Shown here: in pieces, positions 33,070 through 33,141 of the stretch
Position numbering within the stretch: the stretch's first letter is position 1
Layout of the letters: the number at the start of each line of letters is the position of its first letter
DNA from: a virus
Lineage: Duplodnaviria; Heunggongvirae; Uroviricota; Caudoviricetes
Length of the DNA: 64,000 bases
Reading direction: 5' to 3' (one strand)
Virus record (IMG/VR): IMGVR_UViG_3300037790_000024
Made by a program: the position numbers and the translations under genes
Notes under the pieces: model-generated
What the model saw: only the letters and a program-made list of their open reading frames with translations
Told to the model about the DNA's origin: nothing
Databases searched by the model: none

Positions 33070-33141
33070 ATGTGGACTAAACCAGAATACTCAGACATGC
33101 GTTTCGGTTTTGAAGTGACAATGTACGTTGCCAACCGATAA
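33070..33141 (+). CDS. pqqA-like: PqqA-like 23-aa peptide (orphan PQQ-precursor-like gene)
   Basis: [23 protein letters not shown] matches PqqA consensus MW.KP...D.R.G.EVT.Y..NR including the cross-linked E and Y; strong RBS aaaggagaatactATG; extended -10 TGaTATAAT at about 33005-33013. Confidence 0.4.
   Translation: [23 protein letters not shown]

Follow-up and report, generated by a model that had tools for sequence, protein, structure and literature searches.

Known pqqA Systems in Methylotrophs and Their Viruses

PQQ is made from PqqA, a ribosomal precursor peptide that PqqD presents to the radical-SAM enzyme PqqE for cross-linking of a Glu and a Tyr; peptidases, PqqB, and PqqC then complete the cofactor, one peptide being spent per PQQ (PMC7678222, PMC9851590). 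Methylophilaceae carry 3–12 pqqA copies against a single pqqBCDE (PMC4109929), and of the five pqqA genes of Hyphomicrobium the two most strongly expressed include a separately located one, whose expression peaks together with the synthesis of PQQ (PMC9851590). In viruses, a PqqA precursor gene was reported as an AMG by Coutinho et al. (2020) in the Lake Baikal virus population VP_266, where it was read as support for methanol oxidation in the predicted methylotroph host; VP_266 is T4-like, of fresh water, with ~35% GC and an assignment to Methylophilaceae hosts, and also encodes a methanol dehydrogenase (PMC7678222). The gene has further been listed among viral phosphorus-cycling genes (PMC13188868).

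The pqqA considered here lies on a 64,000-nt stretch of viral DNA (IMG/VR record IMGVR_UViG_3300037790_000024), referred to as the window. As in VP_266, a PqqA gene is found in a large myovirus with a predicted methylotroph host; the window phage differs in its non-T4 lineage, its Methylophaga-type peptide, and the lack of a phage-encoded methanol dehydrogenase in the ~81 kb of genome covered. The gene also resembles the stand-alone chromosomal pqqA copies of methylotrophs (Methylophaga, Methylophilaceae, Hyphomicrobium), which have a Shine-Dalgarno (SD) sequence, ORF, and hairpin terminator away from pqqBCDE; unlike these, the window copy is located between phage operons and has an extended −10 element in a phage context. 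With the phages of OM43/LD28 hosts (Melnitz, Venkman, MEP301, MEP401/402, P19250A) it shares an intact orphan ORF of 23–24 aa with an SD in an intergenic gap, however those phages carry the betaproteobacterial peptide type at 68–78% identity, and their families and hosts differ from those of the window phage. By analogy, the arrangement may be likened to cyanophage psbA (D1), as in both the phage would encode just the rapidly replaced component of a host energy system and leave the rest to host machinery; psbA, however, specifies a full membrane protein with no homology to pqqA, whose 23-residue product is destroyed in making the cofactor.

What is new here is the phage lineage and the Methylophaga-type variant of viral pqqA, viral pqqA itself being already published (PMC7678222); since the concept dates from Coutinho et al. 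(2020), the advance is one of breadth and of a new host type, not of kind. The initial annotation of this DNA treated the gene as a curiosity of one phage, a view that has to be given up, as orphan pqqA is common in methylotroph phages and has one published precedent. We consider it rather probable that the window carries a genuine pqqA, captured by a ~90.7-kb myovirus from a Methylophaga-like host and kept as a putative self-contained ‘moron’, which would supply substrate for host PQQ synthesis.

The Phage Genome and the Surroundings of pqqA

Judged by its gene content, the window belongs to a novel tailed phage, a myovirus of virulent appearance; it encodes a terminase, a Mu-type portal, an HK97-type capsid, sheath, tube, and tape measure proteins, along with a family-A DNA polymerase, a primase-helicase, an RNA ligase, and ten tRNAs, at a GC content of ~39.6%. 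The closest GenBank phage match for TerL is at 54%, and megablast of the pqqA region against GenBank phages returned nothing. A 59.2-kb Logan contig (SRR12659294_18594) overlaps both ends of the window (46.1–64 kb and 1–14.6 kb), and the genome is therefore circularly permuted with a length of ~90.7 kb, of which the window and 17 kb beyond its ends cover ~81 kb. The contig breaks of the genome fall at two divergent promoter regions. The pqqA locus recurs with 0 differences across 270 nt in three more assemblies, one from Logan and two from JGI, each of a different sample, which excludes a chimeric assembly; it is also seen there that gene callers skip the ORF. The source samples have the accessions SRR12659294, SRR12659219, JGI 3300037781, and JGI 3300037784.

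The gene is positioned ~33 kb into the window with phage operons on both sides. The rightward operon ends with a gene for a DUF7275 protein (31791–32951, + strand; PF23940, 169.6 bits) and the leftward operon with a gene for a hypothetical 153-aa protein (33204–33665, − strand) that has no Pfam or PHROG match, so that the two operons do converge on pqqA as first described. The neighbors are RNA-repair and nucleotide-metabolism genes, Dam among them, and include an RlaP-like nucleotidyltransferase (30371–31336), a phosphatase-like protein (31333–31794; phrog_335), a nucleotidyltransferase (34154–34723), a PNKP kinase-phosphatase (35747–36652), and an RNA ligase (37215–38510); by Pfam and PHROG comparison none of the genes near pqqA, both flanking genes included, is PQQ-related. 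The dense RNA-repair/tRNA module around pqqA (30371–38510 and 42715–44046, with the ten tRNAs) resembles a counter-defence kit against anticodon nucleases.

Several other genes of this phage deserve mention in their own right. An NAD-salvage-type PF00156 phosphoribosyltransferase and a PF04095 NAPRTase are encoded 7.2 kb before the window start (L254, 19373–21650), and genes with NADAR and YAcAr domains adjoin the packaging module (46827–47613); these are further candidates for metabolic or ADP-ribose-related functions. A stand-alone response-regulator receiver domain protein (PF00072; L252, 17347–17754, ~7.3 kb past the window end) and a 448-aa Band_7/SPFH protein (8880–10226, − strand) are unusual cargo for a phage. 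The protein encoded at 8373–8825 (− strand), homologues of which occur near pqqA in several viral loci, was set aside as an ordinary cell-wall hydrolase (PF07486) that is unrelated.

Identity of the ORF as a PQQ Precursor Peptide

The pqqA gene (33070–33141, + strand) is an ATG-to-TAA ORF of 23 codons, the TAA lying within these coordinates, and its translation is exactly that of the initial annotation. The peptide matches the Pfam PqqA model (PF08042) over its whole length (1–19 of 19) with 44.3 bits (cut-off 21.1; E = 1.6e-11), and the NCBIfam PqqA equivalog model (TIGR02107; 1–21 of 21) with 48.5 bits (cut-off 20; E = 5e-13); the window contains ~1780 six-frame segments of at least 20 aa, and as the match remains significant after these are allowed for, it is not due to chance. 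A degenerate PqqA DNA motif likewise has one match in the window and none in 100 shuffles. The fit to the PqqA consensus, first proposed from the letters of the sequence, is thus upheld by two curated models well above their cut-offs.

On alignment to these models the N-terminal leader by which PqqD would recognize it is conserved in the phage peptide, with W2-T-K-P5, R11, and G13 all present; it is followed by E15-V-T-M-Y19, the Glu-X-X-X-Tyr of the PqqA family. The Glu and Tyr, which here are Glu15 and Tyr19 and are both in place as the initial annotation had claimed, are the residues turned into PQQ (PMC7678222, PMC9851590). Similarity to PqqA, also expected at the outset, was found both by tblastn against GenBank phages and in a scan of bacterial genomes; a search of PDB sequences with the 23-aa peptide gave no match. 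An antisense ORF over pqqA (33048–33134, − strand), the counterpart of one annotated in the phage Melnitz, is considered spurious.

Expression Signals and Cassette Layout

Upstream of pqqA, the rightward operon closes with a terminator at 32964–33000 (+ strand), a GC-rich stem (GAGCCTATC/GATAGGCTT) followed by a T-run; the fold has a free energy of −21.7 kcal/mol (z −4.8; none of 200 shuffles reaches this stability) and is predicted to shield pqqA from read-through. It is followed by an extended −10 element, TGATATAAT (TG-n-TATAAT; 33005–33013, + strand), the putative host sigma-70 promoter of pqqA; no −35 is recognizable, and because of this a two-hexamer scan called no promoter here. The SD, AAGGAG (33058–33063, + strand), is located 6 nt before the ATG, and the equivalent position has an SD-like motif in 104 of the 107 pqqA copies from viruses and in 101 of the 142 from bacteria. 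Downstream, an A-run, a stem (AAACCCCC..GGGGGTTT), and a T-run at 33156–33191, also matched in a terminator scan, fold on both strands (−21.3 kcal/mol on the + strand and −18.4 on the − strand; z −4.0 and −3.5), forming a bidirectional terminator predicted to end both pqqA and the convergent leftward operon. The strong ribosome-binding site, extended −10, and bidirectional terminator of the initial annotation are all borne out, the −10 being without a usable −35. From this layout pqqA is a small separate unit of predicted elements: terminator, extended −10, SD, ORF, and bidirectional terminator.

The motif TGNTATAAT shows no significant enrichment in the window (7 sites against 3.5 expected; 6 of 100 shuffles reach 7). 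Five of these sites are intergenic, however, and all but one of the five face a downstream gene or the tRNA array: that of pqqA, one ahead of the tRNA array, and two in the divergent region near 46 kb. Extended −10 motifs of the form TGGTATAAT or TGCTATAAT occur directly upstream of the tRNA array (44069–44077, − strand), in the divergent intergenic region near 46 kb (45890–45898, − strand, and 46028–46036, + strand), and ahead of the packaging genes (48212–48220, + strand); these perfect motifs are likely to serve host polymerase as promoters, in the class to which the putative pqqA promoter belongs.

That a strong terminator stands on either side of the unit where two operons meet, and that gene callers never called the ORF, could also suggest a role independent of PQQ, where a small RNA or the terminators only insulate or regulate between the convergent operons and the ORF is incidental. 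This is considered highly improbable given the full-length matches to both PqqA models, the correctly spaced SD, the lack of motif matches in shuffled sequence, and coding-type conservation across phages; furthermore, an Rfam search of 32800–33400 gave sub-threshold noise only (His_leader, 21 bits against 49; RsmY, 15 against 57).

Orphan Status

Searches by tblastn with PqqB, -C, -D, and -E found nothing in the window or in the 17 kb beyond its ends, matches with E up to 1 being noise, and the Pfam matches of the 17-kb extensions include no PQQ-pathway or PQQ-dehydrogenase families. The same queries, used as a positive control, detect operons in 36 of the 120 bacterial loci listed; the initial observation that no pqqBCDE genes are in the window is sound. 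In the other 84 of the 120 bacterial pqqA loci listed, pqqB–E are missing within 8 kb, and tandem pqqA copies are common in this sample; bacterial pqqA is often an orphan and multi-copy orphans are documented (PMC4109929), thus a lack of adjacent pqqBCDE does not disqualify the phage gene. The phage cassette looks like one more stand-alone host pqqA copy under a host-type promoter, as far as its sequence features indicate.

Origin of the Gene and Likely Host

The subtype of the phage peptide was sought in 185,579 species genomes with the pattern WTKPxYx[DE]..., giving at least 120 matches; those listed are mostly from Methylophaga/Methylophagaceae or from Burkholderiales/Betaproteobacteria MAGs. 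The phage peptide is identical to Methylophaga PqqA at 20–21 of 22 residues. Among the matches listed, the commonest Methylophaga peptide (90 copies) differs at two positions, where the I20 and C21 found in most Methylophaga copies are replaced by V20 and A21 in the phage; copies with a single difference are those of a Methylophaga MAG (L240), in which pqqA adjoins pqqBCDE, and of a sea-ice gammaproteobacterial MAG with 39.5% GC (L170). Both variant residues occur in these bacteria, as positions 20–21 are I-A in L240 and V-C in L170. The EYSDM signature (residues 6–10 of PqqA) is found, among the matches listed, in 79 of 81 Methylophaga-labelled copies, in 14 of 20 copies from other gammaproteobacterial MAGs, and in none of 41 Burkholderiales copies; it is absent from all 107 sampled viral copies.

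At the nucleotide level the phage CDS shares as much as 91.7% identity with Methylophagaceae copies (median 87.5%), compared to at most 83% for Burkholderiales and 80.6% for other viral copies. BLAST alignments to the Methylophaga copies continue 16–26 nt past the ORF upstream and ~20 nt downstream; flank similarity exceeds that of shuffles, however much of it may be shared terminator architecture, and for this reason similarity beyond the BLAST extensions is not relied upon. The phage GC of 39.6% can be set against a median of 59% for the Burkholderiales loci and 39–54% for Methylophagaceae, and fits low-GC members of the latter; only GC separates these groups. Tetranucleotide usage, compared between the phage and the bacterial loci, correlated at close to zero and carried no information.

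The phage pqqA was probably captured from a Methylophaga-like methanol-using bacterium, and the host is a probable member of the Methylophagaceae on the basis of PqqA similarity and GC only. A close homologue of a host metabolic gene, flanked left and right by phage genes in a genuine phage genome, is what is looked for in an AMG, and pqqA of the window has these features. The initial annotation suggested that the gene marks its host as a PQQ producer, which fits these results, and named Acinetobacter as an example, which does not, since Acinetobacter PqqA is only 63.6% identical. No published description of a Methylophaga phage was found. A match labelled ‘Acinetobacter phage MD-2021a’ (CAKLQF020000010.1) was rejected as a mislabelled bacterial contig with pqqABCDE and served solely to provide reference proteins; over 144 kb it holds ppk, a 5'-nucleotidase, a full pqqABCDE, and a dipeptidase, a region that looks like bacterial chromosome.

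Multiplicity of pqqA was also observed in the Methylophaga-type genomes. Tandem arrays of 2–3 identical pqqA ORFs ~180–290 nt apart are found in five Methylophaga/gammaproteobacterial MAGs (L200, L202, L247, L238, L232), and further copies lie on other contigs of such genomes, M. muralis having at least six loci among the matches listed; this multiplicity, greater than is needed to account for the window, bears on the idea of a limiting PqqA supply.

Orphan pqqA in Other Phages

When the peptide was compared by tblastn to 50,697 GenBank phage records, Methylophilales/Methylophilaceae phages were matched; beyond these, the matches comprise a record of an uncultured Caudoviricetes from fresh water and a single bacterial assembly, wrongly labelled as phage, that accounts for two records. 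Melnitz, MEP402, Venkman, MEP301, and P19250A each have an unbroken ORF preceded by an SD, with no record annotating pqqA, and orphan pqqA is present in all five cultured OM43/LD28 phage lineages examined; in P19250A the gap that holds pqqA is a convergent junction, as in the window. The publications on Melnitz and MEP401/402 do not mention pqqA, and PHROGs has no family matching PqqA. In the Melnitz record (MZ577097.1, ~76100–76208) a hypothetical CDS, MelnitzEXVC044M_152, is annotated antisense to the intact PqqA ORF and is probably a mis-call; in the coordinates of this locus (L001) the CDS spans 3961–4056 (− strand) and the PqqA ORF 3995–4069 (+ strand).

A motif scan of IMG/VR added at least 120 contigs with pqqA, nearly all as clean ORFs of 23–24 aa, and all 50 unique viral peptides pass TIGR02107. 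By tblastn no pqqB–E were found in the 120 IMG/VR loci listed, and none of these 120 contigs shows kinship to the window phage; 46 of the contigs have neighbor genes like those of cultured methylotroph phages when pqqA is masked. Orphan pqqA, as identified from these ORFs, recurs across unrelated methylotroph phages. The sole other IMG/VR contig with a Methylophaga-type pqqA, IMGVR_UViG_3300025652_006157, is unrelated to the window phage. This contig of 58 kb and 39% GC has an orphan pqqA at 3109–3180 with a TATAAT-rich region upstream and an endolysin-like gene ~400 nt downstream, and is another candidate Methylophaga phage.

It is tentatively proposed, as nearly an even prospect, that pqqA is a near-universal signature of phages of PQQ-dependent methylotrophs, the orphan gene having been acquired independently and repeatedly in siphovirus-, podovirus-, and T4-like lineages as well as that of the window, each copy matching the peptide type of its host and all of them overlooked because ORFs of 72 nt escape gene calling.

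Conservation and Selection

The search pattern demanded W2, K4, P5, D/E9, R11, G13, E15, and Y19; conservation at these residues is partly circular because the pattern required them, and is not counted. At codons left free by the pattern, pN/pS among the collected copies is 0.34, falling to 0.06 when only codons 3, 17, 18, and 22 are taken; pS is ~0.65, near saturation. E15, T17, and Y19 are invariant in the 50 unique viral peptides, T17 not being demanded by the pattern. Two more features that are not part of the pattern are the ATG right before the Trp in most viral copies and the stop codon four codons past the Tyr in 107 viral copies. Taken from these substitution patterns, pqqA is under purifying selection across unrelated phages.

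Relatives of the window phage were sought in IMG/VR and JGI metagenomes by way of the DUF7275 gene next to pqqA; those found have only 42–53% identity, no synteny, and no pqqA, and the phage is otherwise represented by identical copies only. The ORF is thus shared with unrelated methylotroph phages and not with these nearest relatives. As regards a possible ‘moron’, the unit has its promoter motif and a terminator on each side, and the gene is missing from the relatives, but these are too distant, and too lacking in synteny, to display an empty site.

These same observations lend something to the view that the cassette is a neutral passenger, recently gained at the operon junction by illegitimate recombination with host DNA and of no benefit here: the only relatives found, very distant ones, do not have pqqA, the high nucleotide identity to host copies fits a recent capture, and the identity of all available copies of the phage leaves no lineage-specific signal of selection. 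Phage genomes are, however, strongly selected to lose DNA of no use, and this is counted against a passenger. The gene has also entered many unrelated phage lineages and stayed intact there, as in each of the cultured OM43/LD28 phages examined, with saturated synonymous sites and low replacement rates; this repeated capture and retention argues for a general benefit, and the window copy itself has the full set of expression signals. A neutral passenger is thus considered unlikely, and a beneficial gene for the PQQ precursor is preferred.

Proposed Function of the Phage pqqA

It is hypothesized that host RNA polymerase would transcribe a monocistronic RNA of ~170 nt from the extended −10 promoter and that the 23-residue peptide would be translated from this phage RNA. 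Host PqqD/PqqE, PqqB, and PqqC with peptidases could then turn the phage peptide into PQQ, PqqE cross-linking Glu15 to Tyr19 and the remaining peptide being discarded; as the peptide is nearly identical to the host substrate, nothing would stop the pathway from processing it. PqqA would be the sole pathway component consumed stoichiometrically, one peptide yielding one PQQ, and the host would have to keep transcribing pqqA to supply it, a problem that methylotrophs already meet with additional stand-alone copies; with a copy of its own, the phage would hold or raise PQQ as host expression declines. Sustained PQQ may in turn keep active the periplasmic PQQ-dependent methanol dehydrogenases that power the methylotroph. 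Expression of the phage pqqA, its processing by host enzymes, and its benefit to fitness are inferred from the sequence.

Substrate supply to the host PQQ pathway is the most economical reading of the locus and the most likely function, in line with how Coutinho et al. (2020) read the gene of the Baikal virus (PMC7678222), and a boost to host PQQ synthesis fits best among the options that the initial annotation had offered. There are counterpoints to this supply model: PQQ is stable and tightly bound, so it is not obvious that a short infection would be limited by new synthesis, and the covered genome, unlike that of the Baikal virus, has no methanol dehydrogenase.

Another of the options offered was a mimic or decoy, whereby the peptide ties up host PqqD/PqqE or yields a product other than PQQ, shutting or redirecting PQQ synthesis. 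An orphan gene with no phage-encoded modifying enzymes could serve such an end, and positions 20 and 21 do depart from the commonest Methylophaga peptide; however, the two variant residues are each found in bacteria too, and they are located in the discarded tail after Tyr19, while every family-defining residue is kept, Glu15 and Tyr19 included. If it cannot be told apart from the substrate, the peptide would be expected to pass through the pathway instead of inhibiting it, and blocking the main energy pathway of the host would harm a lytic phage. A decoy is consequently regarded as very unlikely, and supply of precursor to host enzymes remains the preferred reading.

Significance for Phages of Methylotrophs

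With pqqA, a specific host group, Methylophagaceae, is predicted for a phage that could not otherwise be placed, and infection is likely to rely on the PQQ-dependent oxidation of methanol or C1 compounds; the gene could be of use as a marker for host prediction. Catalogues of viral metabolic genes undercount pqqA because the 72-nt ORF is uncalled, is not in PHROGs, and is unannotated in records. Cultured OM43 phage-host pairs with pqqA exist and offer an accessible system for understanding what limits PQQ biogenesis; the medium published for the OM43 host H5P1 contains 1 nM PQQ, by which an effect of pqqA could be masked. If pqqA is indeed a near-universal signature, it would be among the smallest AMGs known and would constitute a RiPP precursor wholly reliant on host tailoring enzymes; precursor supply, not enzyme capacity, would then limit PQQ biogenesis in infected methylotrophs, and the gene would provide a simple sequence marker for methylotroph hosts, by which the window would be that of a Methylophaga phage.
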